Made by a program: the position numbers and the translations under genes
In this document: positions 5,442 through 30,333 of the stretch, piece after piece
How the letters are laid out: every line of letters begins with the position of its first letter
Position numbering within the stretch: the first letter of the stretch is position 1
The notes under the pieces: generated by a model
The model's input: the letters and a program-made list of their open reading frames with translations, nothing else
Database searches by the model: none
Told to the model about the DNA's origin: nothing
Assembly (NCBI GenBank): GCA_031254155.1
Contig: JAIRVA010000011.1
Coordinates: forward strand, 1 to 39,841
Source of the DNA: Propionibacteriaceae bacterium
Lineage (GTDB): Bacteria > Actinomycetota > Actinomycetes > Propionibacteriales > Propionibacteriaceae
DNA: 39,841 nucleotides
Direction: 5' to 3'

Positions 5442-5766
5442 CAGCAGGTCACCCGTGTTGCATTGTCGGTATCTCTTCGGCTCTACTACGCTTGTTCCGT
5501 TTGGGCTACCACGTCGGACTGCTGGACTCTGGGTGTGGTCTCACATGCTCGCATAGTGGGGCGGGTTGGTCCGTTCAGTTCGACGTGCTGAGGACAGATT
5601 GGCTCACTCCGGCGAAACTGTGCGCGTGAAGGAGGTGTGAGTGCGACCCCGGAACTGTGCAATGCGTTCCAAGGAGTAGATTGCCGAACTCGAATATTGG
5701 CACAATATTGGCATGCGGTCAGATCGACTCATTATCGTTGCTTGTCAAAGTATATACTGTGACTGA

Positions 5767-5789
5767 TTCAAATCCTGTCACCCCGACCA
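5767..5789 (+). other. tRNA 3'-end-like fragment (T-loop, 3' T-stem, 3' acceptor strand, ACCA); possible att scar
   Basis: TTCAAATCC TGT CACCCCG A CCA has canonical tRNA spacing: T54-T55-C56-A57-A58..C61, a 7-nt acceptor strand, a discriminator and CCA. The 5 nt before it match a T-stem partner at only 3/5 positions. No 5' acceptor strand (CGGGGTG), D arm or anticodon arm lies upstream, so it is not an intact tRNA. Confidence 0.35.
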
Positions 5790-6190
5790 GAGGTTCAGCG
5801 TTTGAACTCTGTGACATGCACGCGCCAAACCGAGTTTCTGGAACTGTCGTTTCGTCGCATCTATTGTAGTGGAAGCGGTTGTTGTCTCGTTTTGGGGCGT
5901 TGATGTCGCATGAAGCAGTTTTTGTTCTCAGCGCGTCGTCTGGCGTGTTTTTGACTTTGTTTGGTGTGCCTGGGTCGTTTTCGCGAGTGATGCTGCGCTG
6001 GGGTGTCATGCGCCTTGTCAAAGAGTTTGCAGGGTGTCGCGATGGCAGGCACCAAGCTCGGCGAGTTCGTGGTTTTGGGCGGAGACGCGCCCGGTCGCTG
6101 TCGTACAGGCGTTGGTAGAGGTGACCCAACGGGGTGCAGTCTGCCTGCTCGTTCACGTATCAGGGTCGGGCCTTGGCCGGGTTGACACCG

Positions 6191-14097: not shown

Positions 14098-14122
14098 CCC
14101 ATTTGCAGAAAGGAAACACACC

Positions 14123-15397
14123 ATGTCACGCATGACCCAACTTGCCCGTGTCGGCCTCGTCGCCGTCCTCGGGCTGAGCCTCACCGCCTGTTCGGGGGGT
14201 GGGGAGCCGGGCGGCGGCGCCTCCTCCGGCGCTTCGGCGACGAGTACGCCGGTGACCATCACGTACTCGAACTTCATCTCCAACGGTGGCAACGAGGCGA
14301 ACCTCGCCGCGATCGTGTCCGCGTTCGAGACCGCGAATCCCGGCATCAAAGTCGAGGTGAAGACGCTGCCTTACGCGGACTACTTCACCGCGCTCCAGAC
14401 CGATGTCGCGGGCGGGACCACCGCTGACGTGTTCGACATCGAGTACGCCAACTACGCCGCGTACCAGGCCAACGGTGTCCTCGCCGCGCTGGAAGGCGTT
14501 GACACGGCGGTCTACCAGAAGAACCTGGCCGACGCCTACGCCACCGGTGGTACTCAATACGCGCTCCCCAGCTCCTTCTCGAACGTCGTCCTGTTCTACA
14601 ACAAGACCCTGTTCGACGCCGCCGGCGTCGGTTACCCGACCGCCTCGTGGACGTGGGCCGACGAGCAGGCCGCAGCGGAGAAGCTGACCGACACCGCCAA
14701 GGGCGTGTGGGGCGACTACCAGCCGATCAGCTACAACGAGTACTACAAGGTGGTCGCGCAGACGGGTGGGCAGTTCCTGTCCGCTGACGGCAAGTCGGCC
14801 GCGTTCAACAGCCCCGAGGGCATCAAGGCCGCGAAGTGGCTGGTCGACAAGTCCGGCCAGACCATGCCGACGGCCGCGCAGGGCGCGGGCACCGCTGACT
14901 TCGACTCCAACCTGTTCAAGGACGGCAAACTGGCGATGTGGCACACCGGTATCTGGATGTTCGGCGCCTACGCCAACGCCAGCTTCGACTGGGACATCGC
15001 GGTCGAGCCGGGTGACACCACCCATGCGTCGGCGATGTTCTCCAATGCGCTGGCCGTGTCGGCGAACTCGAAGAACAAGGAGGCCGCGCAGAAGTGGGCG
15101 GTGTTCATGTCGAGCTCGCAGGCCATGGTGGACACCCGCCTGAAAGCCGGCTGGGAGCTTCCGCCCATCGCCGACAAAGCGGCGCTGTCCTCGTACCTCA
15201 CCGCCGGGAAACCCGCCAACCGGCAGGCCGTGCTCGACTCGTTGGATGCCGTGGCTCTGGCCCCGTCTCTGGGTGAGAACCAAGCCGAGATGCAAGATGC
15301 CGTGAACGGACAACTGACCGAGGCCGCCGCCGGACGCAAGACGGTCGAAGACGCCGTCAAGGCCGCCGCTGACAAAGTTGACGCCCTCCTGAAGTAA
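14123..15397 (+). CDS. extracellular sugar-binding lipoprotein of the ABC transporter
   Basis: Lipobox LSLTACSGG and family-1 solute-binding features (ITYSNFISNGG..., LFYNKTLFDAAGV, MWHTGIWM). AAAGGAAAC RBS. Confidence 0.9.
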   Translation: MSRMTQLARVGLVAVLGLSLTACSGGGEPGGGASSGASATSTPVTITYSNFISNGGNEANLAAIVSAFETANPGIKVEVKTLPYADYFTALQTDVAGGTTADVFDIEYANYAAYQANGVLAALEGVDTAVYQKNLADAYATGGTQYALPSSFSNVVLFYNKTLFDAAGVGYPTASWTWADEQAAAEKLTDTAKGVWGDYQPISYNEYYKVVAQTGGQFLSADGKSAAFNSPEGIKAAKWLVDKSGQTMPTAAQGAGTADFDSNLFKDGKLAMWHTGIWMFGAYANASFDWDIAVEPGDTTHASAMFSNALAVSANSKNKEAAQKWAVFMSSSQAMVDTRLKAGWELPPIADKAALSSYLTAGKPANRQAVLDSLDAVALAPSLGENQAEMQDAVNGQLTEAAAGRKTVEDAVKAAADKVDALLK

Positions 15398-15495
15398 GAC
15401 CAGATTAGACGGTGGGGGCGACTCTCCAAGGTCGTCCCCACCACCGATACAGTCAAGGGAAGCGCCAACACCACACCGGAAGGGAACCTGGCCAC

Positions 15496-16617
15496 ATGAC
15501 CACCGCCCACCCGACGGACCTGACCGGTCTGCTCGCCCACTCCCGTACTCTGATCACCGGGTTGCAGACCGCCAGCGGCGCCTATCCGGCCAGTCCGACC
15601 TTCTCCGCCTACCGGGGCTACTGCTGGTTCCGTGATGGTTCGTTCATCGCGGACGGGGTCTCAGTGGCGGGCGACGCGGATTCGGCGACCCGGTTCTTCG
15701 ACTGGTGCGCCCGCGTGATCGCCGACAACCGGCGCCAGATCGACAAGGTCGTCACCGCCGCCGCCCACGGTTCGCCGCTGCCGGACGCCGACATGCTGCC
15801 CGCCCGGTTCACAGTCGACGGACAGCCCGGGGACGACGAGTGGTGGGACTTCCAGCTCGACGGCTATGGTACGTGGCTGTGGGCCGTCGTCGAACACGCC
15901 CGTCGGCACCGGATCGGCGTCAGCCGGTGGGCCGACGCTATCAGCGCCACCGTCGACTACCTAGTCTCATCGTGGCGGCGGCCTTGCTTCGACTGGTGGG
16001 AAGAGCACAGCGAGGCCGTCCACATCTCAACCCTCGGTTGTATCAAGGCCGGGCTCGACGCAGCCCTGGGCACGGGGCTGCTCGACGCGGCGCAAGCTGA
16101 TCGCGCCCACCGGGCCAGCCGGGACATTGCCGGCCTCATCACGACGGGGGGAGTCGCCGACGGCCATCTGACCAAGTGGATTGGCTCCCCGCAACTGGAC
16201 GGCAGCCTGTCCGCGCTGCTCGCCCCGCTGGGCGTCATCAACCCCGCCTCCGCCCTGGGGCGGGGGACCATCGCCGCTATCGACGCTCAACTCGTCGCCG
16301 ACGGCGGCGTGTACCGCTTCCGCGCCGACACCTTCTTCGGTGGCGGCCGCTGGCCGCTTCTGACCTGCTTCCTCGGCCTGGCGAAACTCGCGGCCGGCGA
16401 CCCCGACGGGGCGCGGGCCTGCCTCGACTGGGCCGCGTCCACCGCCACCTCAGGCGGTGACCTCCCCGAACAAGTCGATGGCGGGCGGCTGCTCGACCCG
16501 GCCGCCAAGCAACAATGGATCGACCGCTGGGGCACCGTGGCCACGCCGCTGCTGTGGAGCCACGCCATGCTGCTGCGCCTCGCCGCGGACCTCGGTGTGA
16601 CGGGGGTCGCCGCATGA
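15496..16617 (+). CDS. glycoside hydrolase family 15 protein (glucoamylase/trehalase-like catalytic domain)
   Basis: YRGYCWFRDGSFIADG, WWDFQLDGYGTWLWAV and LPEQVD are typical GH15 (alpha/alpha)6 motifs. ATG 15496 has GGAAGGGA upstream. The ORF-track start 15412 is an unsupported extension. Confidence 0.85.
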   Translation: MTTAHPTDLTGLLAHSRTLITGLQTASGAYPASPTFSAYRGYCWFRDGSFIADGVSVAGDADSATRFFDWCARVIADNRRQIDKVVTAAAHGSPLPDADMLPARFTVDGQPGDDEWWDFQLDGYGTWLWAVVEHARRHRIGVSRWADAISATVDYLVSSWRRPCFDWWEEHSEAVHISTLGCIKAGLDAALGTGLLDAAQADRAHRASRDIAGLITTGGVADGHLTKWIGSPQLDGSLSALLAPLGVINPASALGRGTIAAIDAQLVADGGVYRFRADTFFGGGRWPLLTCFLGLAKLAAGDPDGARACLDWAASTATSGGDLPEQVDGGRLLDPAAKQQWIDRWGTVATPLLWSHAMLLRLAADLGVTGVAA

Positions 16618-18890
16618 TCCGGCACCGGCCCCTTGGCTCCGGCCACCCGTACTCACCCGACACCGAACAGCGCTGGCCGGTCGTCCCCGTCGTCGGCGAG
16701 CCGTTGCGCCTGGGAGTACGGACATCGGGGGACGTCCAGGTCGTCACAGTTGAACTAGTGGTCATGAGCAGTAATTCGCCCACGGTGATGGGGGCCAGCG
16801 CGGCGCTGGGCGGCGCGAAGACCCTCGACCTCACCCCGGTTCCCCGGTCCTCACGCGGCCAGACCACCGACGGCGGCCACCTGGCCTCCGCGCAGGCCCG
16901 CCAAGCCCGTCAAGCCGGCGGCTGGCAAGTCGACCTCCCCGCCGCCCCGGCGGGCGATCTCCGCTACCGGTTCACCGCCCGCCTGGGCGACGGCACCACG
17001 GAAACCACCCGCTGGTACACCGTCCGGGGGGCCGCCTGGCGGCCCGCCGCCGACACCGCAGTGGGCGTCGGTACGGACATCCGGCGACCGGTTCCGGGCA
17101 GCGTCGAGGTGCTGGACGACGGCGAGCGTATTCACCGGGTCCGCCTCGCCCTACCGCTGGCGTCCGGTGAACACGTCACCGGCTTCGGGGAACGCTACGA
17201 CACCGTCGATCAGCGCGGCCTCACCCTGGACAACCAGGTCTTCGAGCAGTACAAGAGCCAGGGCGCGCACCGCCGTACCTACCTGCCCATGCCGTTCGCA
17301 CACGTCGTCGGCGGTGACGGGTGGGGCTTCCACGTCCCAACCACCCGCCGCGTCTGGTTCGACGTTGGCCACACCACGGCTGACCGCTTGGTGATCGAAG
17401 CCGAAACCGACACCTTGTCTGACGCCGAGGTCCAACTCAGCCTGGCGGTCTACTCGGGCAGTCCCGCCGAGGTACTCGACCAGTTCCTGGCCGAGGTCGG
17501 ACGGCCCGCCGAACTGCCCGCCTGGGTGTTCCGCCTCTGGGCCTCCGGCAACGAATGGAACACTCAGGCCGAGATCGGCCGGCAAGCCGCCCTCCACACC
17601 CAGTACGGCATCCCCGTCGGCAACATCGTCATCGAGGCCTGGAGCGACGAAACCACCTTCACCTGCTTCAGGGACGCCCAGTACGACGTTCACGCCGACG
17701 GAAGCCCCCACCGCCTGGGCGACTTCACGTTCCCGCCCGACGGGGCCTGGCCCGACCCGAAGGGGATGGTCGATTCCCTGCATGACCAGGACATTCGCGT
17801 TCATCTGTGGCAAATCCCCCTGCTCAAGACCCGTCCCCACCCCACCGGCCAGGCCAAGGCCGACGTCCACGCCGCCATCCGCGACAACGTCCTGGTCCGC
17901 GAGACCGCGACGGACGGGACGCTGCGCCCGTACCGAAACCGGGGCTGGTGGTTCCCGCTCGGTCTCATGCCCGACCTCACCGACCGGCGCGCCGCCGACT
18001 GGTGGACCGCCAGACGGCGCTACCTGGTCGAGGAGGTCGGCATCGACGGGTTCAAGACCGACGGTGGCGAACACGCCTGGGGCCGCGATCTGGTGTATCT
18101 CGACGGCGCCCACGGCGACGCGAGAAACAACGCCTACCCGGTGGCGTACGCCGCCGCCTACGGACGCCTCCTGGAGTCGTGCGGCAAGGCGCCGGTCACC
18201 TTCTCCCGGTCCGGGTACGCCGGTTCGCAGGCCCACGGGGCGTTCTGGGCCGGCGACGAGAATTCCACCTGGGAGGCATTCCGCTGGTCCATGATCGCCG
18301 GACTGGGCGCCGCCAGTTGTGGCATCGTCTACTGGGGCTGGGACATCGCCGGATTCTCCGGCCCCGTCCCCGACGCCGAACTGTACGTCCGGGCGATGGC
18401 CGCCAGTGCCTTCCTGCCCATCATGCAGTACCACTCCGAGTACAACCACCACCGCTCGCCGTCCCGCGACCGTACCCCGTGGAACATCGCGGAGCAAACC
18501 GGCGAAGCCAGTGTGATCGAGGAAGTCCGCCAGATCGTGGCTGTGCGCGAACGCCTCGTCGGCTATCTGGCCGAGCAGGCCCGCCGCACTCTCGCCACCA
18601 GCCGTCCGCTGTTGCGCCCACTGTTTTTCGACCACCCGGACGATCCTGCGATCTGGGAACACCCGGTCCAGTGGACACTCGGCGACCATATCCTCGTCGC
18701 ACCCGTCCTCGCCCCCGGGCAGACCGCCTGGCCGGTGTACCTGCCGGCCGGACACTGGATTGACGCCTGGACCGGCGAGCCCCACGAAGGCCGACGAGTC
18801 ATCACCGCCCACGTACCCCGCCATCACGCGCCCGCCTACGTTGACGCCGGCCAATGGCCGACGCTGCAGGCCGTCTTCCGAGGCGAGTAG
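16614..18890 (+). CDS. glycoside hydrolase family 31 (YicI-like alpha-glucosidase/alpha-xylosidase)
   Basis: GFGERYDTVDQRG, IDGFKTDGGE (nucleophile region, YicI-type KTD.GE) and FWAGDENSTWEAF. ATGA overlap with the GH15 stop. Confidence 0.9.
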   Translation: MIRHRPLGSGHPYSPDTEQRWPVVPVVGEPLRLGVRTSGDVQVVTVELVVMSSNSPTVMGASAALGGAKTLDLTPVPRSSRGQTTDGGHLASAQARQARQAGGWQVDLPAAPAGDLRYRFTARLGDGTTETTRWYTVRGAAWRPAADTAVGVGTDIRRPVPGSVEVLDDGERIHRVRLALPLASGEHVTGFGERYDTVDQRGLTLDNQVFEQYKSQGAHRRTYLPMPFAHVVGGDGWGFHVPTTRRVWFDVGHTTADRLVIEAETDTLSDAEVQLSLAVYSGSPAEVLDQFLAEVGRPAELPAWVFRLWASGNEWNTQAEIGRQAALHTQYGIPVGNIVIEAWSDETTFTCFRDAQYDVHADGSPHRLGDFTFPPDGAWPDPKGMVDSLHDQDIRVHLWQIPLLKTRPHPTGQAKADVHAAIRDNVLVRETATDGTLRPYRNRGWWFPLGLMPDLTDRRAADWWTARRRYLVEEVGIDGFKTDGGEHAWGRDLVYLDGAHGDARNNAYPVAYAAAYGRLLESCGKAPVTFSRSGYAGSQAHGAFWAGDENSTWEAFRWSMIAGLGAASCGIVYWGWDIAGFSGPVPDAELYVRAMAASAFLPIMQYHSEYNHHRSPSRDRTPWNIAEQTGEASVIEEVRQIVAVRERLVGYLAEQARRTLATSRPLLRPLFFDHPDDPAIWEHPVQWTLGDHILVAPVLAPGQTAWPVYLPAGHWIDAWTGEPHEGRRVITAHVPRHHAPAYVDAGQWPTLQAVFRGE

Positions 18891-18963: not shown

Positions 18964-19635
18964 CTACGGCAGCGGCGGTCCAGGCTTCGGGGGTGGGCCA
19001 AGTATCTTGCCTGGCGAGGTGACCGCGAGTCGCCCAAAGACATAGTTCCTGCCTGCTCCGATACCGACGCCGATGGCGAAAGGAACCTGCTTGCCGCAGA
19101 CGAGGAGTCCTTGCTTGGTACCGTACTTGGTGACGAAGTAACGTCCCAGGGTTTTGTTGGCGGCCTTAATCGCCTCCGTTGGGATCGCTTACACTATCTT
19201 TCTTCCCCAGTAAGGGGCGGTGCGCCCGATCAACGGCTTCAGTACGGTCTTCGCAGTACTATCACCAACGAGTGCCACAGTGACCAACAGCCGTCGGCTC
19301 TCGTAGTCTTCGGCATCGGTACCGTGGACTTCGGCGGCGGACAGGGTGTACAAGACTGAGGTTTCCAGGAACGTGAGAAGGTCGGCCAAGGCGACGGGAA
19401 CCTGAACGAGCCCGTTGGGGATGATTGCCGCCGCACCAGCACCAACTCCTGTGACGGTGACCGTGCCCAGGTACCATTTCCCCACATAGGCGAGGAGCTC
19501 TCCGGGAGGTTTGTCGGGGTGCACCCGCCGCAAGCGTGCGACGTACTCCGTCCCCAACGGGTATGGGGTCTCCAGAGCCTTGTTTGGGCCCGCAGCTAAG
19601 GCGGCCTCGGGATCAAGTTTTCTGATATCCGACAC
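18964..19635 (-). pseudogene. EcsC-like membrane-associated protein interrupted by an in-frame TAA
   Basis: The ORF-track entry 19189..19635 stops at TAA 19189-19191. The same frame then continues directly as AIPTEAIKAANKTLGRYFVTKYGTKQGLLVCGKQVPFAIGVGIGAGRNYVFGRLAVTSPGKILGPPPKPGPPLP* to TAG 18964-18966. The Gly-rich GKQVPFAIGVGIGAGRNY end resembles EcsC-family C-termini. Total length is 672 nt, in frame. Confidence 0.5.
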
Positions 19636-19782: not shown

Positions 19783-20889
19783 ATGATGCGAGACGAGGGT
19801 GGACTCTCCGTGATACCAGAGGTTTCGGCGTCGCCAAGTGTTCCTCCGATTGTCATCGATTTCTTTAGTGGGTGTGGGGGAACGAGTGCCGGGCTACGGA
19901 GAGCGGGCTTACGCATCGTGGCCGCTGTCGACTTCGACCCAGCCGCATCGGCAACCTATCGGGCGAACTTTCCAGAAGCCGAGTTCCACGAGATTGATGT
20001 ACGTAAACTCCCTCTCAATTCCTTTGACCACTTGATGGAAGCCGATACGCCGATTGTTTTCTCCGCGTGTGCGCCTTGCCAGCCGTATAGTTCTATGCGC
20101 CCTCGTGACTCGCGTCAGCGGCCTCGTGAGAGATCGTTGCTCCTGTCGCTCCTCCCATTTGTCGATCGCTTGTGGCCAGACTCGATTGTCGTGGAAAACG
20201 TTCCGGGGTTACAGAAGGTTTCCGGAGCTTCTACATGGAATCGTTTTCTGCGGCATCTTGAACGCGGGGGGTACTCCATTCGATGGGATGTTGTTGATTG
20301 CCGTAACTACGGCGTGCCGCAGCGGCGGCGGAGGTTGGTCCTTCTAGCTTCTCGCCACGGAGGAGTCGACCTACCCGCTGCTACGCATGGGGTGGGTGGG
20401 CGGCCCTACTCCACTGTGCGAGACTGGATCGGGCATCTGCCGCCGCTAGATGCCGGTGAGACCTGTGCTGAGGACCCTATTCACCGAGCGGGCAGGTTGG
20501 GAGAGCAGAACCTCCGGCGTATCATGGCGACCCCTGAAGGGGGAAGTAGATCGGATTGGCCCGCAGAACTCTGGCTGGAGTGCCATAAGCGCGCCAAAGG
20601 GCATCAAGACTCTTACGGTCGAATGCGGTTTGACGAGTCTGCCCCGGTGCTGACCACCAAATGTACTGACATCACAAACGGGAGATATGGGCATCCGAGT
20701 CAGAACCGAGGCCTGAGCGTCAGGGAGGCGGCTCTGCTCCAGACTTTTCCACAAGATTTCACATTCATCGGAGGGCTCCGATCAATGACCAAACAGATTG
20801 GTAACGCGGTTCCTGTTCTCGTAGCGGAGGCGATGGGGCGGCAGGTTGCTCAGCATCTTCAAACAGAGCGGGCAGCGCGCAATGGCTGA
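19783..20889 (+). CDS. DNA (cytosine-5)-methyltransferase
   Basis: All C5-MTase motifs are present: I VIDFFSGCGG, IV SACAPCQPYS, VI ENVPGL, VIII QRRRRLVLLAS, IX REAALLQTFPQDF and X QIGNAVP. The exact start is uncertain (ATG 19783/19786 or GTG ~19810). Confidence 0.9.
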   Translation: MMRDEGGLSVIPEVSASPSVPPIVIDFFSGCGGTSAGLRRAGLRIVAAVDFDPAASATYRANFPEAEFHEIDVRKLPLNSFDHLMEADTPIVFSACAPCQPYSSMRPRDSRQRPRERSLLLSLLPFVDRLWPDSIVVENVPGLQKVSGASTWNRFLRHLERGGYSIRWDVVDCRNYGVPQRRRRLVLLASRHGGVDLPAATHGVGGRPYSTVRDWIGHLPPLDAGETCAEDPIHRAGRLGEQNLRRIMATPEGGSRSDWPAELWLECHKRAKGHQDSYGRMRFDESAPVLTTKCTDITNGRYGHPSQNRGLSVREAALLQTFPQDFTFIGGLRSMTKQIGNAVPVLVAEAMGRQVAQHLQTERAARNG

Positions 20890-23818
20890 GTTTCGCGCGA
20901 GTGCGCGGACAGTGGACATGCTGGGTAGGCAGCAGATCGCGGGCGTTCCCACCGCAATCAGCGAGTTGTACAAGAATGCACACGACGCGTATGCGACGGT
21001 CGCGGAAGCTGACTTCGTTCGTTACAAAGGCGTCTTCGTCCTCCGAGACAATGGAGACGGCATGTCGCGTACGGACTTCGAGGGGAGATGGTTGACGCTG
21101 GGCACCTCATCCAAGTCCGCTACAAGCTCTCTTCGTGTCGATACTGCGCGCCCGCGTAGAGCGATTCTTGGTGAAAAAGGAATCGGACGGCTTGCGATCG
21201 CTGCTATTGGTCCACAGACTTTGGTGGTGACTAAGGCTCGAGGGCACAAGCGCGTCGCCGCGCTTGTTCACTGGGGCGTGTTCGAGTTAGCGCATGCAAG
21301 CCTTTCGGAGATCAAGGTGCCAGTGGTTGAGCTCGAACCCAGCCAGGGACCGGATGTGCGGGAGATGAGTCACCAGATACTTGCCAACGTTCGTCATCTC
21401 GTGACTGACGACGATCCCGGACTGTATGACAGGATTCACCAGGACTTGCGCCGATGGTCCGAAGTTGGTCTGGACGAAGTCACGGCTGCGGCAGGAGTCG
21501 ACCTTGCGGCGTTCGAGCCGGGTACGGCTTTCGTGATTGTTCCGACGTCACCTGACTTGGAAGCCGATCTGGAGGCCCCACCAAAGGAGGCCGCACCATT
21601 GCTGAGAACTCTCATCGGGTTTGCCAACACGATGACTCCAGGTCATTCTGTACCCGAACTAAAGACAGTTTTTCGGTACCACCGTGCTCCCGACGATGTT
21701 CGAGATCTCATCGAAGACCAAGAGTTCTTCACTGTAGACGAATTTCGGAAGGCTGATCATCACTTCGAGGGGGAGTTTGACGAGTATGGTCAGTTCCGAG
21801 GGACCGTGTCGGTGTTTGATGGTCCCCCACAGTCTTACCCCCTCCCTTGGAGTCCGGCGCGTGGTGTGCGAACCCGCTGCGGCCCGTTTCGCCTTCACCT
21901 GGCCTACGTTCAGGGAGTTGCCAAGTCCTCGCGCCTTGAGGCGAACGACTTCGTCGCGATCGGGGAGAAGCTCGATTGCTATGGCGGCTTGTACATCTAC
22001 AGGAATGGTGTTCGAGTACTTCCCTATGGGGATAGTAGTTTCGACTGGCTTGATGTTGAGAAGCAGCGCACTAAATCAGCATCAGATCATTTCTTTTCGT
22101 ATCGCCGGATGTTCGGTGCCGTTGAGATTACGAGAGAGAGGAATAGCCAACTCCGGGAGAAAGCAGGGCGTGAAGGTTTCGCGACGAACGAAGCATACCG
22201 TCAGTTTCGGGAGATCCTGAAGAACTTTCTGACGCAAGTCGCGAACGAGTTTTTCCGTGAGGGCGGACCTCAGGCCGAAGCCTGGGAAGAAGGAAAACTG
22301 GCAAATGAGCGAATGGACAAGGCGAGGCGAGTTCGGAGCAAACAAGTGCGAGCGCGGCGTACCGAGTACAGTGGCGCGCTGGATCGCTTTTTTGAGGAGG
22401 TAAACGCTGGAGTGCCTGAGGCCAAAGTGGAGCGAATCCTGGGAGATCTCCGCCTCGAAGTGGGGCATGCTCAAGTGACCGAAGATCCGTCGACAGCGGT
22501 TGACCTGTTGGTACGCGCAGAACTGAGTGCACGCTCCCAACTCCGAGAACTTGTGTCAAGCCTTCAAGTGCGACGACCCCGCGGAGTTGCGCTTAGTGGG
22601 ATTCTGACTAGACGATCTAGGCTCTATGACGAGACTCGGGTCGACATTCTCGAGTCCGTGTTGCGGCCTGCTGAGCAACAGGTGGATGAAACACTCTCAG
22701 TGGTGGACCTTCAACTAGACCGAGCCGTTCATCGCCGTCTGCGATTTGATCAATCGGTCTTGCAGGCAGTAGATGAGTCGCGAGACATGGTCAGTGGGGC
22801 GAGAGGTGATCTACAGAAGCAGGCTGCGCAAGTCGCTGATCGGATAAAGGAACTAGTTGGCGAGGCTCGAAAAGCGGTTGAGATGGAAGCGGTGGCGGTG
22901 CTACAGCAGGCGGCAACGACTGAGCTTTCGTGTCTTACTGATCCGGAGTTCGCGCGATTGAGGAATGAGTTGGAGACCCGTGTCAGGGCTATGGCGGGTT
23001 CTCAGCTTGATGCGTTGCGTGCGGTCGAGGAGCAGTTGCGTTCAGTGGTCTGGGCGGCGGAAGATGAGAACGGGGGTACGGCCTCCTTGCTGGACCAGGT
23101 GGAGCAACTCGAAGAACGCGTTGAAGTACTTACCGATCGTGCATCCCAGGATTTTGAGCTTGTTCAGATCGGGCTAGCGGTTAATATCGTGACTCACGAG
23201 TTCGAGAACAGCATCCGATCCGTTCGTGAGAACCTGCGACGTCTCAAAGTCTGGGCGCAAGAGAACGCGAGCTTGCGACCCCTTTACAGCGATCTCCGAA
23301 CATCCTTTGAACATCTCGATGGGTACCTGCGGCTCTTCACACCGCTTCACCGGCGTCTGTACCGTGAACCGGTGGAGATCGCTGGAACCGACGTGGTGAG
23401 ATACCTGAGCGACGTGTTCGAGCGGCGACTGATTGAGGAAGGAGTGGAACTGAACGCGACAGCGGCGTTTCAGAGCATGCGTGTACGAATGTTCCCGTCC
23501 ACATTATACGCAGTGTTGGTGAACCTAGTTGACAATGCGGTGTACTGGGTTGCGCAGTACTCTGGAACCCGAGAGATAACTCTCGACAAGTCGGAGGGAT
23601 TGATCTCCGTGACTGACTCAGGTCGCGGCGTTAGTCTCGGTGATGAGGAAGTGGTGTTTGAGCAGGGGTTCTCCCGGAAACCGGCCGGATCGGGGTATGG
23701 GCTTTTTGTGGCCCGTGAGGTGTTGCGTCGTGACGGAGCCGACGTTCGGCTCGCACCGCCAAGTGCGGATCGCGGCGCTCGTTTCGAGATACTTCTTCCT
23801 GACGGAGGCGAGAAGTAA
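20882..23818 (+). CDS. fusion protein: N-terminal MutL/MORC/Hsp90-type GHKL ATPase, long helical region, C-terminal histidine-kinase transmitter (DHp + CA)
   Basis: ATG 20882 overlaps the MTase stop (ATGGCTGA). N-terminal Bergerat motifs: ISE28LYKN32AHD35A, LRD56NGDGM, LGTSSKS, GEKGIGRLA and GLYIYRNGVRVLPYGDSSFDWLDVEKQR. C-terminal kinase motifs: H-box VTHEFENSIRSV (His772, nt 23195-23197), N-box NLVDNAVYW, G1 VTDSGRGV and G2 GSGYGLFVAREV. Confidence 0.85.
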   Translation: MAEFRASARTVDMLGRQQIAGVPTAISELYKNAHDAYATVAEADFVRYKGVFVLRDNGDGMSRTDFEGRWLTLGTSSKSATSSLRVDTARPRRAILGEKGIGRLAIAAIGPQTLVVTKARGHKRVAALVHWGVFELAHASLSEIKVPVVELEPSQGPDVREMSHQILANVRHLVTDDDPGLYDRIHQDLRRWSEVGLDEVTAAAGVDLAAFEPGTAFVIVPTSPDLEADLEAPPKEAAPLLRTLIGFANTMTPGHSVPELKTVFRYHRAPDDVRDLIEDQEFFTVDEFRKADHHFEGEFDEYGQFRGTVSVFDGPPQSYPLPWSPARGVRTRCGPFRLHLAYVQGVAKSSRLEANDFVAIGEKLDCYGGLYIYRNGVRVLPYGDSSFDWLDVEKQRTKSASDHFFSYRRMFGAVEITRERNSQLREKAGREGFATNEAYRQFREILKNFLTQVANEFFREGGPQAEAWEEGKLANERMDKARRVRSKQVRARRTEYSGALDRFFEEVNAGVPEAKVERILGDLRLEVGHAQVTEDPSTAVDLLVRAELSARSQLRELVSSLQVRRPRGVALSGILTRRSRLYDETRVDILESVLRPAEQQVDETLSVVDLQLDRAVHRRLRFDQSVLQAVDESRDMVSGARGDLQKQAAQVADRIKELVGEARKAVEMEAVAVLQQAATTELSCLTDPEFARLRNELETRVRAMAGSQLDALRAVEEQLRSVVWAAEDENGGTASLLDQVEQLEERVEVLTDRASQDFELVQIGLAVNIVTHEFENSIRSVRENLRRLKVWAQENASLRPLYSDLRTSFEHLDGYLRLFTPLHRRLYREPVEIAGTDVVRYLSDVFERRLIEEGVELNATAAFQSMRVRMFPSTLYAVLVNLVDNAVYWVAQYSGTREITLDKSEGLISVTDSGRGVSLGDEEVVFEQGFSRKPAGSGYGLFVAREVLRRDGADVRLAPPSADRGARFEILLPDGGEK

Positions 23819-23819
23819 C

Positions 23820-25469
23820 ATGAGTGACAGCTTCGAGAGTCACATTCGAGAACAAGTGAAGTGTTTTTTGCAGACCGTGTTGGTGATCGACGACGAGGCA
23901 TATCGGCCGCTTGACTCATCAGCGCTGGACGTGGATGATGGCGAAGACTGGGGTGTTGGTGGCCGGGAGTCGCTGCCAGGAAAGCTGCCGCAACTGAAGG
24001 TTCCGCTGGAAGAACATGCAAGTGAAGCGTTCGATGCTAAGTCGGTGTCAGTCGCCTTCGCAAAGGTCGGGCTGTCTTGCGCAATCTTGTCGCCACAGTC
24101 AACGCAGGAGAACAAGGAACACGAACCTGCGTTCACTTCGGCTGCAAAACGCGCTGACGTACTTGTTTTGGACTGGAGTATGAACGGCGACCATGGACAA
24201 ACTGCCAAAGACCTAGTTGGCTCTGTGTTACGCGATGATGCGAGTAACGAGCATCATCGTCTTCGACTTATCGTCGTCTACACGGGTGAACCGTTTCTCG
24301 GGGACATTGCAGTGCAGATAGCCTTGGTAGTCAAGTCGATTCTTGGCGACGAGCCTGACTGGGACGATAGAGAAACAATGGTCTCATTCTGTTGTGGGCC
24401 TGTGCGAGTATCGGTATACGCGAAAGAGCATGTGAGTAACCTCCCCATCGGCCTCGAGGAGCGTAGACGCAGTCTTTCCGCGTTACCTCAGGTGACTGTG
24501 GAAGAGTTCGGCCGCCATCGTATTGGGCTCGTCACTACGGCAGCGATATCCGCTCTAGCGGCGATCCGAAATGATGCCCATAGACTGCTCGCTGTTTTTG
24601 GTCCAGAACTGGACCCTGCGGTTCTTGGTCAACGCGTCGCCTTGCCCCATCCAGAAGATGTGGAACGGCAAGTTGAGGAACTTATCGGATCCGAGTTACT
24701 GGCTATTGTGCAAGACCATGAAGTGGGTGCTCACATCGGAGTACCAGAGATTGAGGCTTGGCTTGCGCATGACAAGAGTTTGGGTTCGCATGGGTGCAGC
24801 GAGTTCGAGGGCGTTACGGATGCGATCCGCCTCCAACTTCTCAAGGACGGGCTTACGGAGAAACTGAAGGGCGAAGCGGGGATAAGTGGGAACAAAAGTA
24901 ACCGCTTTAGGAAAAGAGGTGCTGCTCTGTTTGCTTCTAGCGAAGAGAAGTCCGACAGCTCGCGCGATCTCCTGGGTGTACTCATGTCCATGCGTAGTCG
25001 CTATACTAGGCCAATTCCACGGCTTCAGCTTGGCTCGGTCGTTGAACAAGGGGGTGTCTACGCGGTTTGCGTGCAACCTTTGTGCGATTGTGTGCGGATC
25101 GTCGGAGAACGTGCATTCCCGCTACTACCCGCAGAAGTCGTGGAGGAAGACAACGGTGGCGCCGGGGGATATCTTGCCACGGTTTATGATCCCGCCGCTG
25201 ACCGGACTTCCTGTCGGAATGGGTATGTACGGCTGCGAGTGAGAGCTGATCCCTGGCGGATTCAAATGGTTGCGTTCGCCGCGTCAACTACGGGAGAAGT
25301 CGAGTCGATCATAGAGGATGGTGCGATTACTTTTCGGTCGAAGACTGGTGAAGTGTGGCGATGGATTGGGGAGTTGAACCCGGAACACGCTCAGCGAGTA
25401 GTGGTGAGTCTTGCAGCAAGTCTTGCTCGGGTTGGTGTCACTGAAGTTGAGGCTCTACGCGTCGGTTGA
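23820..25469 (+). CDS. divergent response-regulator receiver-domain protein with an uncharacterised ~330-aa C-terminal region
   Basis: ATG 23820 lies 1 nt after the upstream TAA, with GGAGG 11-15 nt upstream. Receiver signature residues sit in canonical order: TVLVID24D25E, ADVLVLD118WSM (nt 24171-24173), RLIVVYTGEP and VSVYAKE. A ~45-aa acidic insert follows beta-1. I recognise no motif in the C-terminal half. Confidence 0.75.
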   Translation: MSDSFESHIREQVKCFLQTVLVIDDEAYRPLDSSALDVDDGEDWGVGGRESLPGKLPQLKVPLEEHASEAFDAKSVSVAFAKVGLSCAILSPQSTQENKEHEPAFTSAAKRADVLVLDWSMNGDHGQTAKDLVGSVLRDDASNEHHRLRLIVVYTGEPFLGDIAVQIALVVKSILGDEPDWDDRETMVSFCCGPVRVSVYAKEHVSNLPIGLEERRRSLSALPQVTVEEFGRHRIGLVTTAAISALAAIRNDAHRLLAVFGPELDPAVLGQRVALPHPEDVERQVEELIGSELLAIVQDHEVGAHIGVPEIEAWLAHDKSLGSHGCSEFEGVTDAIRLQLLKDGLTEKLKGEAGISGNKSNRFRKRGAALFASSEEKSDSSRDLLGVLMSMRSRYTRPIPRLQLGSVVEQGGVYAVCVQPLCDCVRIVGERAFPLLPAEVVEEDNGGAGGYLATVYDPAADRTSCRNGYVRLRVRADPWRIQMVAFAASTTGEVESIIEDGAITFRSKTGEVWRWIGELNPEHAQRVVVSLAASLARVGVTEVEALRVG

Positions 25470-25792
25470 CTGGGGTGAGAGAAACCCGTCGGTTGGTCGG
25501 GGTGCCATATGGACCCTGGTATACGGCGATGCCTCCTCTTTGGTCCCTTGCGTAAACCCTGTCCCCAGCCGCTGGCGTCTACAACAACGATGCCGGTCGC
25601 CACGGTTTCCAGGTTGGGTCGTCTCCCGCTCGCCCCGTTCGCGCAACGTGTCAGCCCGCGGCCGGGCACGAGCCCGCAGGCAGTCGAGCAGGCGACGACG
25701 AACGCCGAGGTCTGTAGAAAGCGAGGCTACAGATTGGTATATGGATTGAACTATTGCGTGTATGCTGGTACCGCTATCGGAAAGGAACTGTC

Positions 25793-26437
25793 ATGTCTCC
25801 CAGCGCCGCCCCTGTCCCGCCGAAGAAACCCCTAGTCAGTATCATCGTTGGTATCTGCGTGCTGGTACTCGGCCCGATTGTTGGGACTATCATTATTGTT
25901 TATTCGACAATGAGTTCGTTTAGTGGGGTCCTTGATGCGCCGACTCACACGGCGGATGGTTCGCCTAGCGCGGTCACGTTGACGGCGGGTGCGGAGATGG
26001 GGATTTGGACGGAGCAGGGGAATTTTGGGCAGTGTTCGGTGACGGATCCGACCGGCCAGGCTGTCGCTCTCAACGCCAACTCGGCGGTGAGTGTGAATAC
26101 GGGGAACTTCTCTCTGGGTGGGATTTTCACCCCGACGGTGGACGGGTCGTACGAGGTGCAGTGTACCTCCAGCGGCACGCCGTTTGAGTTCCGGGTGGCG
26201 CCGTCTGTCCAGGTCGCTAAGTTTGCGGGTGGGCTCGTGATTGGGATCGGTCTCATCATTGTGACCGGCTTGGCCGGTCTGGCTATTCTGATCGTGGGGA
26301 TTGTCCGCCGGGTGAGCTGGAATAGCCAGTACGGCCGGCGGGGCGTACCTGGCTATCCACCCGTCGGCGGCTACCCGCCTGCTGGTAGTTACCCACCCGC
26401 GGGGCCGGCGGGTCCGGTACCTGGTCGGGCCAACTAG
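25793..26437 (+). CDS. two-TM membrane protein with Pro/Gly/Tyr-rich C-terminal tail
   Basis: GGAAAGGAA RBS. TM helices IIVGICVLVLGPIVGTIIIVY and GGLVIGIGLIIVTGLAGLAILIVGIV flank a beta-rich extracytoplasmic segment. The tail reads GYPPVGGYPPAGSYPPAGPAGP. Confidence 0.6.
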   Translation: MSPSAAPVPPKKPLVSIIVGICVLVLGPIVGTIIIVYSTMSSFSGVLDAPTHTADGSPSAVTLTAGAEMGIWTEQGNFGQCSVTDPTGQAVALNANSAVSVNTGNFSLGGIFTPTVDGSYEVQCTSSGTPFEFRVAPSVQVAKFAGGLVIGIGLIIVTGLAGLAILIVGIVRRVSWNSQYGRRGVPGYPPVGGYPPAGSYPPAGPAGPVPGRAN

Positions 26438-26866: not shown

Positions 26867-26933
26867 TTGTGCGGGGTCCGGTACGGCGTTGAGGGGCCGG
26901 TGCTCCTGGGTGGACGGGCCGGACCCCGCACAA
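26867..26933. repeat. 13-bp perfect inverted repeat (TTGTGCGGGGTCC / GGACCCCGCACAA) with a 41-nt spacer, between the sORF and kdpD
   Basis: Read directly from the sequence: arms at 26867-26879 and 26921-26933. Function unknown (attenuator, terminator or deletion-junction structure). Confidence 0.5.
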
Positions 26934-27119
26934 GCGCTCTCACCCTCGCTTCGCTCGCCCGCCCGGCGCCCGGCTGACGACGCAGCGTGGATCAGCGCTT
27001 CCCCGGGCGAGTTCCTGGCCCGTTGTACCTTGCCGTACTGGCCCCGAAACCACGGTGAGAGCGTTAGGCTATACCCGGTGGTTGCACGCGTGTGCCCACC
27101 GCTGGCAAGAAGGGAAGAC

Positions 27120-29663
27120 ATGGATCGCGGCCGGTTGCGGGTCCTGCTCGGTGCGGCTCCGGGCGTCGGGAAAACGTACGCCATGCTGGACGAGGGCCGG
27201 GGTCTCAAAGCGTCGGGCAAGGACGTCGTCGTGGCGGTCGTCGAAACCCACGGCCGCCCGGCCACAGCCGCCCAGACGCGGGGCCTGGAGATCCTGCCGC
27301 GGAAGATCGTGGTCCACCGCGGGATCGAGCTGACCGACATGGATACCGACGCGGTCATCGCCCGGCGCCCGGACATTGCCCTGGTCGACGAGCTGGCCCA
27401 CACCAATGCCCCCGGAATGCGCCATGACAAGCGCTGGGAGGATGTGGAAGACCTGCTCGCCGCCGGGATTGATGTCATCACGACCGTCAACATCCAGCAC
27501 ATCGAGTCGATGAACGACGTGGTCGAGGAGATCACCGGTGTCGCCCAGCACGAGACCATCCCCGACGGCATCCTGCGCGCCGCCGATCAGGTGGAGGTGG
27601 TCGACCTGGCACCGCAAGCCCTGCGCGACCGGTTGTCGGCCGGGTACGTCTATCCGGCCGAACGTGTCGACGCCGCCCTCTCCAACTATTTCCGGGTCGG
27701 CAACCTGACGGCCCTGCGCGAGCTGGCGCTGTTGTGGGTCGCGGACGAGGTGGACACGGCCCTCAAGAAGTACCGTACCGAACACGGCATCGCCCAGCAG
27801 TGGGAGGCCCGCGAGCGGGTCGTGGTGGCGCTCGGCGGCGCGAGCGAGGGCGAGATGCTGCTGCGCCGCGGGGCCCGGATCGCGTCGCGGTCGGTTGGCG
27901 GCGAGCTGATGGCGGTCCACGTCGTGAGCCAGGACGGGCTCAGTACGCCGCACCCGGGTGTTCTCGCCGCCCAACGGGCGCTGATCGAGCACCTGGGGGG
28001 CACCTACCACCAGGTCGTCGGCGACGACATCCCCGGCGCCCTCGTCGAGTTCGCGAAGGCCGCCGAGGCCACCCAGCTCGTCGTCGGCTGTTCGCACCGC
28101 CACTGGGCGCTTGGTCCCCTGGTCGGGCGGGATATCGGGATGGCGGTCATCCGGGATTCGGGGACAATCGACGTTCACATCGTCAACACGTCCGTGACGG
28201 CGGTCCGGCTGGCCCTGCCGCGGCTGGGGGGTGCGATGTCGCTGCGTCGAATCCTCGCCGGTTTCCTGGTCACGCTCGCGGGCGGCCCCCTGCTGACGTG
28301 GCTGCTCCGTGTGACCCACCCCGAGGGGACAATCGCGCCGCACGTTCTCGCGTTCCAGGTCCTGGTCGTGGTCGCGGCCGTGATCGGCGGGCTGTGGCCC
28401 GCGCTGGCCGCGGCCGTGATGTCGGGCCTGCTCCTGAACTACTTCTTCGTCGCCGCGACCGGTACCTTCACGATCCAGGAGCCCAGCAACCTGATCACGC
28501 TCGCGCTGTACGTCCTGGTGGCGGTCTTGGTCAGTTTCGTTGTCGGCGAAGCCTCCCGTCGGTCGCGCCAGACTCGTCGTACCGCCGCCGAGTCCGAGCT
28601 CCTCGCCGCCGTCGCGGGCAGCGTCATGCGCGGCCAGGATGCGGTTCAAGCCATCCTGGAACGGATCAGTGAGGCGTTCAGGCTTGATGGCGTACGTTTG
28701 CGGGCGGGCGACACCGTTCTAGGTACGGTGGGCGAAGTGGGTGGCAAACCGCCCACGGGGACGTTCCCGGTGGGGGAGCGGGCGGTGCTCGAGGTCCGGG
28801 GACCGGATCTGACGACGTCGGAGCGCCGTCTCATGGCCGTACTCGTGTCCCAGCTTGACGCCGCGCTCGAGGTCGGCGACCTCGCGAAGACGGCGAGCGA
28901 GGTGGAGCCGCTTGCCGCGTCGGAGCGGGTCCGGACGGCCCTGCTGGCCGCGCTGAGCCACGACCTGCGCCGGCCCATCGCCTCCGCGACGGCCGCCGTG
29001 AGCGGGCTGAAGGCCATGGGGGCCGACATGACGCAGGACGACCGGGAAGAGTTGCTGTCCACCGCCACCGAGAGTCTCGACGCGCTCGCGGAGCTTGTCA
29101 ACGACCTGTTGGACGTCAGCAAGCTCCAGGCCGGGGCGCTCGTGATCGCCACGACGCCGGTCGATGTGGACGACGCGATCGCGCCGGCGCTGGACGAGTT
29201 GCGGCTCGACGCGCACGATGTCGAGCTCGACCTCGGCGACGTACCCCCGGCGATGGCCGATCCCGTGTTGCTCCAGCGGGTCATCGTGAACCTGCTGCTC
29301 AACGCGTTGCGGTACGCGCCGAAGCACACCAAGGTCCGGCTGGCGACGAGCGCGTTCGGCGGCAACGTCGAGGTGCGGATCACGGATCACGGGCCCGGTG
29401 TGCCGCCCGAGCGGGTCGGGGCGATCTTCGTACCCTTCCAGCGTGAGGGCGACACGGACAATACCAAGGGCTTAGGGCTGGGACTCGCCCTGTCGAAGGG
29501 CTTTGTCGAGGCGATGGGGGGTACGCTGACCCCCGAGGACACCCCGGGCGGCGGGCTGACGATGGTGGTGTCCCTCGCCGCGGCCGTCTTGGCGGCCGGC
29601 TCGCCCGGCACCCCCGATTCCGACTCCGACGACGGGAGAACCGATGAAGATACTGATCGTTGA
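27120..29663 (+). CDS. kdpD: sensor histidine kinase KdpD
   Basis: N-terminal KdpD domain LRVLLGAAPGVGKTYAML...ALVDELAHTN...DVITTVNIQHIES, then a USP-like domain, four TM helices, H-box LSHDLRRPI, N-box NLLLNALRYA, and G boxes DHGPGV / GLGLGLA. Confidence 0.9.
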   Translation: MDRGRLRVLLGAAPGVGKTYAMLDEGRGLKASGKDVVVAVVETHGRPATAAQTRGLEILPRKIVVHRGIELTDMDTDAVIARRPDIALVDELAHTNAPGMRHDKRWEDVEDLLAAGIDVITTVNIQHIESMNDVVEEITGVAQHETIPDGILRAADQVEVVDLAPQALRDRLSAGYVYPAERVDAALSNYFRVGNLTALRELALLWVADEVDTALKKYRTEHGIAQQWEARERVVVALGGASEGEMLLRRGARIASRSVGGELMAVHVVSQDGLSTPHPGVLAAQRALIEHLGGTYHQVVGDDIPGALVEFAKAAEATQLVVGCSHRHWALGPLVGRDIGMAVIRDSGTIDVHIVNTSVTAVRLALPRLGGAMSLRRILAGFLVTLAGGPLLTWLLRVTHPEGTIAPHVLAFQVLVVVAAVIGGLWPALAAAVMSGLLLNYFFVAATGTFTIQEPSNLITLALYVLVAVLVSFVVGEASRRSRQTRRTAAESELLAAVAGSVMRGQDAVQAILERISEAFRLDGVRLRAGDTVLGTVGEVGGKPPTGTFPVGERAVLEVRGPDLTTSERRLMAVLVSQLDAALEVGDLAKTASEVEPLAASERVRTALLAALSHDLRRPIASATAAVSGLKAMGADMTQDDREELLSTATESLDALAELVNDLLDVSKLQAGALVIATTPVDVDDAIAPALDELRLDAHDVELDLGDVPPAMADPVLLQRVIVNLLLNALRYAPKHTKVRLATSAFGGNVEVRITDHGPGVPPERVGAIFVPFQREGDTDNTKGLGLGLALSKGFVEAMGGTLTPEDTPGGGLTMVVSLAAAVLAAGSPGTPDSDSDDGRTDEDTDR

Positions 29664-30333
29664 CGACGACCCCCAGATTGTGCGCGCGTTGCGGATCACG
29701 CTGCGCGTCAAGGGGTACGAGGTCGTGATCGCCGCTGACGGCGCCCACGCGATCGCGCTGGCGGTGGACGAGCGGCCGGACGTGTACCTGATCGACCTCG
29801 GCCTGCCCGGCATGGGCGGGCTGGAGGTGATCAAGGCGGTACGCGGGTGGTCGATGGCACCGGTCCTCGTCGTCTCGGGCCGCGCGGGCTCGACGGACAA
29901 GGTCGAGGCGCTCGACCTCGGGGCCGACGACTACGTCACCAAACCCTTCTCCATCGACGAATTGCTCGCCCGCATCCGGGCTCTGACCAGGCGCATCCCC
30001 GCTGGCGAGGAGGAGGAACCGCTGCTGAAGCTCGGGCCGGTGACGATCGACTTCTCGGCGCGGACGGCGATGAAGAAAACCGGGCGGCGGAGCGAACCCA
30101 TCCGGCTCACCCCGACCGAGTGGCAGGTTCTGGGGCTGCTGGCCCGCAACCCGGGTCGGCTCGTCACCCGGCAGACCATGCTCACGGAGATCTGGGGCTC
30201 GGTCCACGTGGCCGACACGGGGTACCTGCGGCTGTACATGTCCCAACTCCGCAAGAAGCTCGAGCCCAACCCGGGCAAGCCAAGATACTTGATCACCGAG
30301 TCCGGGATGGGGTACCGTCTCCAGGTGGGGTGA
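29644..30333 (+). CDS. kdpE: OmpR-family response regulator KdpE
   Basis: MKILIVDDDPQIV..., DVYLIDLGLPGMGG, VLVVSGR, DDYVTKPF and a winged-helix C-terminus (LTPTEWQVL...GMGYRL). 20-nt overlap with kdpD. Confidence 0.9.
   Translation: MKILIVDDDPQIVRALRITLRVKGYEVVIAADGAHAIALAVDERPDVYLIDLGLPGMGGLEVIKAVRGWSMAPVLVVSGRAGSTDKVEALDLGADDYVTKPFSIDELLARIRALTRRIPAGEEEEPLLKLGPVTIDFSARTAMKKTGRRSEPIRLTPTEWQVLGLLARNPGRLVTRQTMLTEIWGSVHVADTGYLRLYMSQLRKKLEPNPGKPRYLITESGMGYRLQVG

Follow-up and report, generated by a model that had tools for sequence, protein, structure and literature searches.

What does a conserved region of about 340 residues do at the end of a receiver protein, when it belongs to no recognised sequence family? 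The question is raised by a locus in the window analysed here, the whole 39,841-nucleotide stretch of contig JAIRVA010000011.1 from a Propionibacteriaceae bacterium (assembly GCA_031254155.1), in which three co-directional genes code for a C5 cytosine DNA methylase, a histidine kinase-like protein and, as the third, a response regulator-like protein whose C-terminal region (hereafter the tail, with boundaries refined to about aa 212–549) is the subject of this text. We tentatively read the receiver protein, with confidence that falls slightly short of even, as the output, gated by phosphorylation, of a defence cassette linked to methylation, in which a toxin-like barrel in the tail would be the effector. 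What makes the tail of interest is that it is a conserved candidate effector module, orphan in sequence and with a possible CcdB/MazF-type fold in its predicted model. The cassette as a whole unites DNA methylation, a MORC-type DNA-dependent ATPase and a His-Asp phosphorelay, which are well-studied modules that are seldom joined, and its unexplained chemistry is concentrated in this one conserved 340-residue module. The function of the tail would decide whether methylation-based self-recognition is coupled to an effector in a new way, and would also tell what prokaryotic MORC-like ATPases sense. The cassette is missing from the PADLOC defence-system models.

The receiver protein belongs, as a full-length member, to the named Pfam family PF19192 (Response_reg_2) and is not a new kind of protein. 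Its receiver region matched model positions 1–179 of 180 with 129.3 bits (cut-off 27, E = 2e-37); PF19192 was the only family reported for the protein at E ≤ 0.1, and the canonical receiver family PF00072 (Response_reg) gave no match. Among 161 full-length relatives, in which residue conservation was counted, the acidic pair was kept in 159 (D24) and 158 (D25), the phospho-acceptor D118 and K202 in all 161, and T155 in 151, with Ser in eight more. This active-site set (acidic pair, phospho-acceptor Asp, Thr/Ser and Lys) is present in the window protein and in 93–100% of the relatives. The intact receiver core that the original prediction had read from the letters alone (D24, D25, D118, Thr and Lys) is thus confirmed by a full-length family match and by conservation, that of the receiver Asp being complete. 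The acidic insert that it had placed after beta-1 is real (aa 28–66, YRPLDSSALDVDDGEDWGVGGRESLPGKLPQLKVPLEEH, net charge −5) but is a trait of the whole family and not peculiar to this protein; across relatives the same loop measures 0–98 aa (median 41), is rich in P, E, A, S and D and is net negative, and receiver loop extensions were already remarked on in the paper that defined the family (PMC8011034).

That paper, by Bellieny-Rabelo et al. (2021, PMC8011034), is a bioinformatic description of PF19192/PF19191 two-component-like elements linked to restriction-modification (R-M) systems. It reported that the two genes are linked (91.6% in 644 regions), often with a C5 methylase upstream and often with Vsr downstream, and that the kinase is related to paraMORC ATPases; the receiver and DHp domains were analysed, and the ~340-aa output region of the receiver protein was not discussed. 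An earlier treatment of paraMORCs (Iyer et al. 2008, PMC2292703) did not mention the receiver partner. The window cassette is the system of the 2021 paper, with the same linkage, upstream C5 methylase and receiver loop extensions, and it is the same in kind except that it has no Vsr. The label of a novel effector, given to the protein in the original prediction, does not survive, since the protein is an ordinary PF19192 member and the 2021 paper (PMC8011034) had already described how such proteins pair with HEF_HK kinases and C5 methylases. Beyond that paper, the present analysis adds a two-subdomain model and a signature motif for the tail, shows that the architecture is fixed and that archaea have members too, and gives a lead towards a toxin fold.

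Gene content and order of the cassette are strictly kept. A search of one-genome-per-species contigs with the tail signature C-[VLI]-Q-P-x-C-D-[SC]-[VL]-R gave 174 confirmed loci, 80 of which were kept; they derived from Actinomycetota, Acidobacteriota, Chloroflexota, Bacteroidota, Pseudomonadota, Verrucomicrobiota and others as well as from archaea (Methanosarcina and a Promethearchaeum metagenome-assembled genome), with the closest relative in Phycicoccus elongatus (Actinomycetota, 51% identity). In 69 of 81 loci, bacterial and archaeal, the methylase, kinase and receiver genes were co-directional and in this order, the exceptions being mostly loci that end at contig edges, and the kinase-receiver pair was found in 78. 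The gene sits in a defence-type cassette, a possibility on which the original prediction had made its reading conditional. Clustering of all neighbouring ORFs (open reading frames) returned Vsr (45/81 loci) as the sole further recurrent neighbour, and no separate conserved nuclease other than Vsr lay beside the cassette in the 81 loci. The window itself holds no Vsr: a tblastn search with the Vsr of locus L003 gave nothing, and the usual Vsr position (25470–25750) is without it. The methylase had type II MTase and DruM-like matches in PADLOC. It is conserved to an even degree from end to end, also in the stretch that we take to be the C5 target-recognition region, which suggests that the methylases of the cassette share one specificity.

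The domains of the cassette (PF19192, PF19191, HATPase_c, HATPase_c_3 and DNA_methylase) all scored well above their Pfam cut-offs. In the kinase, which we number in the 990-aa frame of the mechanical ORF from TTG 20846 (the called gene, P0307, has 966 aa), they comprise an N-terminal HATPase_c_3 head (aa 36–140), which is a MORC/MutL-type GHKL domain, HEF_HK (PF19191, aa 774–840, 95.8 bits) and HATPase_c (aa 885–986). Catalytic residues are conserved in 31 kinase relatives: H784-E785 of the HEF motif, the N box (N893/D896/N897) and the G box (G948/G950/G952) are invariant, F786 is kept in at least 90%, and E40, N44, D68, G70 and G72 of the N-terminal GHKL domain are conserved. A kinase profile searched against PDB returned histidine kinases over the DHp and CA domains (3a0r, E = 2e-15) and, weakly, HtpG/MutL over the N-terminal GHKL domain. 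In an AlphaFold model of aa 130–780 (pLDDT 81) the chain is alpha/beta to about aa 440 and then consists of long helices only, so that a linker of about 330 aa of long helices lies between the GHKL/transducer-like ATPase module and the DHp/CA domains. Foldseek gave weak matches of this model to the ATPase region of GyrB/ParE/MutL and to coiled coils, and none to a nuclease. A nuclease hidden in the kinase was rejected as a candidate, model and Foldseek giving just the ATPase region and long helices. PADLOC returned one weak type II REase match for the kinase, and the NCBIfam model NF050001 of BbrUII/HgiDII GHKL-fused restriction enzymes matched its N-terminal part only (60 bits). One kinase relative (P0394) is named 'signal transduction histidine kinase/HEPN domain-containing protein' in one source; no HEPN evidence was found in the window proteins.

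Because no gene other than Vsr recurs beside the cassette and the kinase holds no unassigned globular domain, the tail is, by elimination, where an effector activity of the cassette would have to reside. The original prediction had seen in it the likely executioner or adaptor, and of this the standing as sole effector candidate holds, but an executioner role is not demonstrated by the MazF/CcdB fold lead described below.

The tail had also been called unassignable, and the library searches agree. In 21 members nothing consistent was found in Pfam even at E ≤ 10, NCBIfam, PADLOC and PHROGs gave no match, and the tail profile (338 aa) searched against PDB sequences had a designed helix bundle at E = 0.17 as its single return. 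No helix-turn-helix (HTH), nuclease, cyclase, PNP, TIR or transmembrane family was found for it in Pfam, NCBIfam, PADLOC or PHROGs, and a match to a housekeeping output domain was likewise looked for and not found in the libraries searched. The region is no junk, being strongly conserved within its own family. In the N-terminal, helical part R250 and D265 are kept in all 161 relatives, E292 in 159 and R272 in 152, and in the following beta part the signature residues are kept in 159 (C417), 154 (Q419), 159 (P420), 161 (C422), 156 (D423) and 157 (R426). The near-invariant polar residues fall into three groups (R250/D265/R272/E292, Y395/C417/Q419/P420/C422/D423/R426 and R537/E544/R547).

Against 1.84 billion representatives of 50%-identity clusters, the profile of aa 212–549 matched 1,778 proteins at E ≤ 0.001, of which 1,175 reached E ≤ 1e-30; with a tail in about 1,800 such clusters from at least six bacterial phyla and archaea, the cassette is common. 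In the best 150 of the ~1,800 clusters the module occupied about residues 210–550 of a ~550-aa protein and always stood behind a Response_reg_2 receiver. This fixed place argues that the module is not shuffled among sensors, and fusions of tail homologues to other sensor modules, a prospect raised by the original prediction, did not occur in these 150. Short matches were checked as possible stand-alone tails and rejected, being a 1.7-kb contig fragment or a decayed copy with receiver remnants. In three metagenome samples (L164:1–1456, also L165 and L166) the tail is called as a 340-aa gene whose upstream receiver is broken by a stop and frameshifts, and in this lineage the gene appears to be a decaying copy. 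Two further candidate assignments failed on the conserved residues. For a HEPN domain, R250-x3-H254 is one residue short of Rx4-6H, H254 is only 80% conserved (Y, S or F otherwise) and Foldseek gave no HEPN match; readings of C-x-Q-P-x-C-D as part of a PD-(D/E)xK or HNH nuclease, a deaminase (PCxxC) or a cysteine protease have no conserved Lys/His partners.

This pattern of conservation bears on a reading in which the tail would have no catalysis of its own and would serve as an adaptor or regulator: once the receiver is phosphorylated, the tail would bind back to the methylase, to the paraMORC ATPase or to some host factor and would tune methylation or DNA compaction, making the cassette an epigenetic or regulatory two-component system of the sort on which the 2021 paper speculated. 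Such a part would suit a tail without catalytic signature, and the conserved Arg/Asp/Glu pairs could be interface salt bridges; moreover, a regulatory link to R-M systems was proposed in PMC8011034, where it is also summarised that eukaryotic MORC ATPases act through DNA compaction and silencing. We nevertheless regard this reading as improbable. The invariant Cys-x4-Cys-Asp-x2-Arg cluster with its Gln and Pro resembles a functional site rather than a plain interface, a compact unit that moves horizontally across phyla and archaea, with some copies beside defence-type genes, fits a selfish or defence element better, and the cassette would then hold no effector.

The near-obligate linkage to one orthologous C5 methylase and the frequent Vsr are what would be expected if the tail were a new DNA endonuclease, that is, the 'R' subunit of an R-M system, with the paraMORC kinase finding unmethylated sites, phosphorylation of D118 licensing the cut and the C5 methylase protecting the host. 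The paraMORCs are known partners of restriction endonucleases (PMC2292703, PMC12137116), the kinase GHKL head resembles that of BbrUII/HgiDII enzymes, as seen in its NF050001 and PADLOC type II REase matches, and the beta subdomain has a slightly basic character (median net charge +3). Yet neither PD-(D/E)xK, HNH, GIY-YIG and PLD nor any other nuclease was detected in the tail with Pfam, NCBIfam, PADLOC, PDB sequences or Foldseek, the tail has neither an invariant Lys nor an invariant His, and it is unlike the C-terminal part of the BbrUII/HgiDII enzymes. Intact kinase-receiver pairs also occur without an adjacent methylase, which for a classical enzyme would be lethal unless a methylase acts in trans. 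No recognisable restriction endonuclease was found elsewhere in the cassette (Pfam, NCBIfam, PADLOC and the kinase model), and by this measure it is no classical type II R-M system. An endonuclease in the tail is therefore doubtful in our judgement.

The structure prediction gave the tail a confident two-subdomain fold. An AlphaFold2 model computed from a 21-sequence alignment (mean pLDDT 85.6, pTM 0.79) has a helical subdomain (aa ~219–390) of about eleven helices, with pLDDT in 10-residue blocks of about 69–92 and lowest N-terminally, a beta subdomain (aa ~406–519) of nine strands with pLDDT mostly of 80–96, and a terminal helix of 28 residues (model residues 310–337). With a median net charge of −6, the helical subdomain is acidic. 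High-probability Foldseek matches of this model in PDB were MazF toxins only, with 6kyt_D at probability 0.99 (E = 0.04, TM-score 0.58 on the target, rmsd 5.0), followed by 7d2q_A (0.89), 9ikd_L (0.87) and 5cr2 (0.72–0.77), and the remaining matches (diphtheria toxin, DH-PH modules and PCNA) had probabilities of about 0.1. In BFVD, which holds viral models, only a 'PemK-like protein' and two 'endoribonucleases' exceeded 0.5 (0.54–0.72). The Foldseek comparison proposed with the original prediction thus returned MazF/PemK as the sole credible matches, but these are weak and go without sequence homology. The order of elements in the predicted fold, namely a hairpin, a short helix, further strands and a C-terminal helix, is that of the CcdB and MazF structures, and the tail stretch Y-x-V-C-V-Q-P...R-x-F-P-x-L-P is reminiscent, by eye, of F-V-D-V-Q-S-D...R-x-V-I-P-L in CcdB. 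There are differences as well: CcdB, MazF and PemK toxins are proteins of ~100 aa with a separate antitoxin, whereas here the barrel is part of a 549-aa protein, and to our knowledge C417, Q419, C422, D423 and R426 have no counterpart in these toxins.

In the reading that we tentatively favour, for which anatomy, conservation and linkage are shown and we infer the defence role of the cassette, the cue sensed, the direction of regulation, the phosphotransfer and the biochemical activity of the tail, the methylase would mark host DNA as self, and the GHKL/MORC-like ATPase head of the kinase, as a dimer, would engage DNA or another infection cue. Along the helical linker of ~330 aa the signal would reach the DHp domain; there H784 of the HEF motif would autophosphorylate and hand the phosphoryl group on to D118 of the receiver. 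Phosphorylation of D118 would then release the C-terminal module, composed of the acidic helical subdomain, the CcdB/MazF-like barrel and the capping helix, as an effector, presumably a toxin-like domain that arrests growth or damages nucleic acid. A narrower form of this reading, R-M-like immunity in which a phosphorelay-triggered toxin takes the place of 'R', seems unlikely to us as a whole: the kinase would read methylation, unmethylated foreign DNA would lead to phosphorylation of the receiver, and the CcdB/MazF-fold domain, which the acidic helical subdomain would otherwise inhibit in cis, would be unmasked and the cell arrested. If this were true, epigenetic self/non-self discrimination would be tied to abortive infection through two-component signalling, and the tail would represent an unrecognised branch of the CcdB/MazF fold with a Cys-x4-Cys-Asp-x2-Arg site.

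Three observations, all of them from context, speak for a defence role of the cassette, namely its low-GC island, the neighbours of two related loci (L030 and L039) and a validated relative, the Ambrosia system. The G+C content of the cassette is 55–58% and that of its flanks 65–67%, and by this difference the cassette looks horizontally acquired. Neither a tRNA gene nor persuasive direct repeats at the flanks turned up (the best pair, D9, of 15 nt, is at chance level). The kinase-receiver pair of L030 adjoins genes for a helicase, an MZB/DUF1998 protein and a PLD nuclease, a set that we read as DISARM-like, and that of L039 adjoins metallo-beta-lactamase, ThiF and JAB genes; we interpret both surroundings as defence islands.

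Ambrosia of Pseudomonas aeruginosa (bioRxiv 10.1101/2025.09.30.679545) consists of the XRE regulator AbrR, the N6 methylase AbrA, the HATPase_c_3 and HATPase_c kinase AbrB, the 209-aa REC-wHTH (winged HTH) protein AbrC and the HNH nuclease AbrD, and its anti-phage defence requires all five genes and D60 of AbrC. A methylase, a HATPase_c_3-headed kinase and a receiver with a required Asp make up a set comparable to that of the window cassette, and in BLASTP the published N-terminal part of AbrB (~400 aa) proved homologous to the kinase of the window over ~420 aa (E = 4e-24), sharing the IYRD..R..PYG and NREG motifs with it. Kinases of this type hence serve phage defence in Ambrosia, but the answer is not simply transferable because receiver and effector differ there. 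Ambrosia has an N6-adenine methylase, an XRE regulator, a separate HNH nuclease and a short AbrC, whereas the window has a C5 methylase and a 549-aa receiver protein, with no HNH or XRE gene next to the cassette, and neither Pfam nor hhalign detected a relation of AbrC to Response_reg_2.

The comparison also suggests a transcription factor, in which the tail would hide a divergent DNA-binding domain and induce the cassette or other genes on infection, as has been proposed for AbrC. AbrC has a reported wHTH, the expression of Ambrosia rises upon infection (bioRxiv 10.1101/2025.09.30.679545), and a subdomain of about eleven helices could hold an HTH that profile methods miss. We consider this very unlikely: no HTH or wHTH family was found at any threshold, the Foldseek matches include no transcription factor, the helical subdomain has a net negative charge, and a relation of AbrC to the Response_reg_2 family could not be detected. 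Ambrosia, moreover, has an HNH gene to induce, whereas no such conserved target gene exists here.

Other known systems share parts of the proposed logic. In Detocs (bioRxiv 10.1101/2023.01.24.525353) a relay from kinase to receiver-effector serves abortive-infection defence and the isolated effector is toxic; a cytoplasmic kinase phosphorylates a receiver fused to an effector that does not bind DNA, which is what we propose for the window cassette. Detocs differs in its TPR-containing kinase DtcA, its stand-alone buffer receiver DtcB, the PNP or other known effectors on DtcC and the absence of a methylase; the window cassette has no stand-alone receiver gene, and none of the PADLOC models, Detocs included, matched the receiver protein. 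An N-terminal MORC-like GHKL head in an R-M or defence setting, as in the window kinase, is also found in the BbrUII/HgiDII enzymes and in Shedu VcSduA/paraMORC3. There the ATPase is fused directly to a nuclease, in the Shedu case in a validated variant (PMC12137116), whereas in the window a histidine-kinase core stands in that place and the putative effector is on a separate, phosphorylatable protein.

A number of results weigh against a phosphorylation-gated toxin in a methylation-linked cassette. The E-values of the Foldseek matches of the tail in PDB and BFVD were 0.02–0.5, none at or below 0.001, and evidence for a toxin fold is weak in this respect. Aligned with hhalign, the 161-sequence tail profile had a probability of 0.4% against a MazF/Kid/ChpBK/EndoA profile and of 0.09% against CcdB, the latter following the expected strand order and using a shallow alignment of three sequences (a viral scan gave one locus, and a metagenome scan 80 near-identical F-plasmid copies). 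PemK (PF02452) and CcdB (PF01845) gave no Pfam matches at E ≤ 10 in the 21 members. MazF has a long substrate-binding loop between its first two strands, and its catalytic residues are an Arg in this beta1-beta2 loop and a Thr/Ser on beta-3. In the tail model the first two strands of the barrel are joined by a two-residue turn, so a MazF-type active site is unlikely, the loop that bears the catalytic Arg appearing to be missing. Taken with the weak Foldseek scores and the negative hhalign and Pfam results, this makes a CcdB/MazF-like barrel a lead on the fold and not a family membership. Nor is there an invariant His or Lys in the tail among the 161 relatives, which leaves it without a standard nuclease signature. 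Two intact kinase-receiver pairs (L030:26–3516 and L039:836–4291) have no adjacent C5 methylase. In Ambrosia, AbrC is a short REC-wHTH protein and the executioner a separate HNH nuclease, which argues that receivers in such systems can be regulators. Finally, no experimental work on the cassette was found in the literature searched.

The coordinates of the cassette and of the parts of the receiver protein are collected in Table 1. The public gene call gives the same 549-aa product as the ATG-started ORF; an alternative, longer frame from a GTG at 23640 overlaps the kinase gene and differs from the called product. The ATG of the receiver gene lies one base past the TAA stop of the kinase gene (23816–23818), with a GGAGG at about 23806–23810, and from this spacing the two genes are probably translationally coupled.

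Table 1. Features of the methylase-kinase-receiver cassette in the window
Feature	Position	Strand	Evidence or remark
C5 cytosine DNA methyltransferase, 368 aa, first gene of the cassette	19783..20889	+	Pfam DNA_methylase, E 7e-56; NCBIfam dcm
Histidine kinase-like protein: paraMORC-type GHKL head, long helical linker, HEF_HK, HATPase_c	20918..23818	+	Pfam; models
Response regulator-like protein, 549 aa + stop	23820..25469	+	ATG start; gene-call record P0001
Response_reg_2-type receiver domain, aa 16-206	23865..24437	+	PF19192; D118 codon at 24171-24173
Variable acidic loop, beta-1 to alpha-1, aa 28-66	23901..24017	+	Length and composition compared across the family
C-terminal module, predicted helical subdomain, aa 212-391	24453..24992	+	AlphaFold model; conservation
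C-terminal module, predicted beta-barrel subdomain, aa 392-512	24993..25355	+	AlphaFold model; signature
Family signature C-[VLI]-Q-P-x-C-D-[SC]-[VL]-R, aa 417-426	25068-25097	+	Within the predicted beta-barrel subdomain
Long C-terminal helix (predicted), aa 513-549	25356..25466	+	Helix in the model; conserved W515, L519, R537, G539, E544, R547

Plasmid records held two copies of the cassette only, one of them a remnant disrupted by IS5. This remnant (L081) lies on the mobilizable plasmid pPsy0479a of Pseudomonas syringae (NZ_ON146836.1, 41745–42750); its kinase is reduced to an 82-aa 'ATP-binding protein' beside the IS5 transposase, and its receiver gene is truncated after about 260 aa.

Around the cassette, the window shows ordinary host context upstream, with a sugar-utilisation cluster at 11095–18890 (ROK-family regulator, solute-binding protein, and GH15 and GH31 glycosidases). 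Between this cluster and the methylase, on the opposite strand, lies an ORF of 148 aa (19189–19635, − strand) that may or may not be a gene, in a stretch with a moderately lowered G+C content (61%); Pfam and PHROGs gave no match for it, and it is no recurrent neighbour at the related loci. Downstream of the receiver gene an ORF of 227 aa (25754–26437, + strand) has two hydrophobic segments, a Pro/Gly/Tyr-rich tail and no family match, and its product is probably a membrane protein outside the cassette. Directly downstream of the island follow genes for the sensor kinase KdpD (26889–29663, + strand) and a KdpE-like regulator (29644–30333, + strand, PF00072 Response_reg and Trans_reg_C), a canonical pair with which the divergent kinase and receiver of the cassette can be contrasted inside the window itself. 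Roughly 15 kb away from the cassette, an ArdA antirestriction protein is encoded on the reverse strand (3304–4011, PF07275, E = 4e-24); the adjoining stretch at 4001–6000 has 55–56% G+C and ORFs without Pfam match, and the region looks like the remnant of a conjugative or mobile element.

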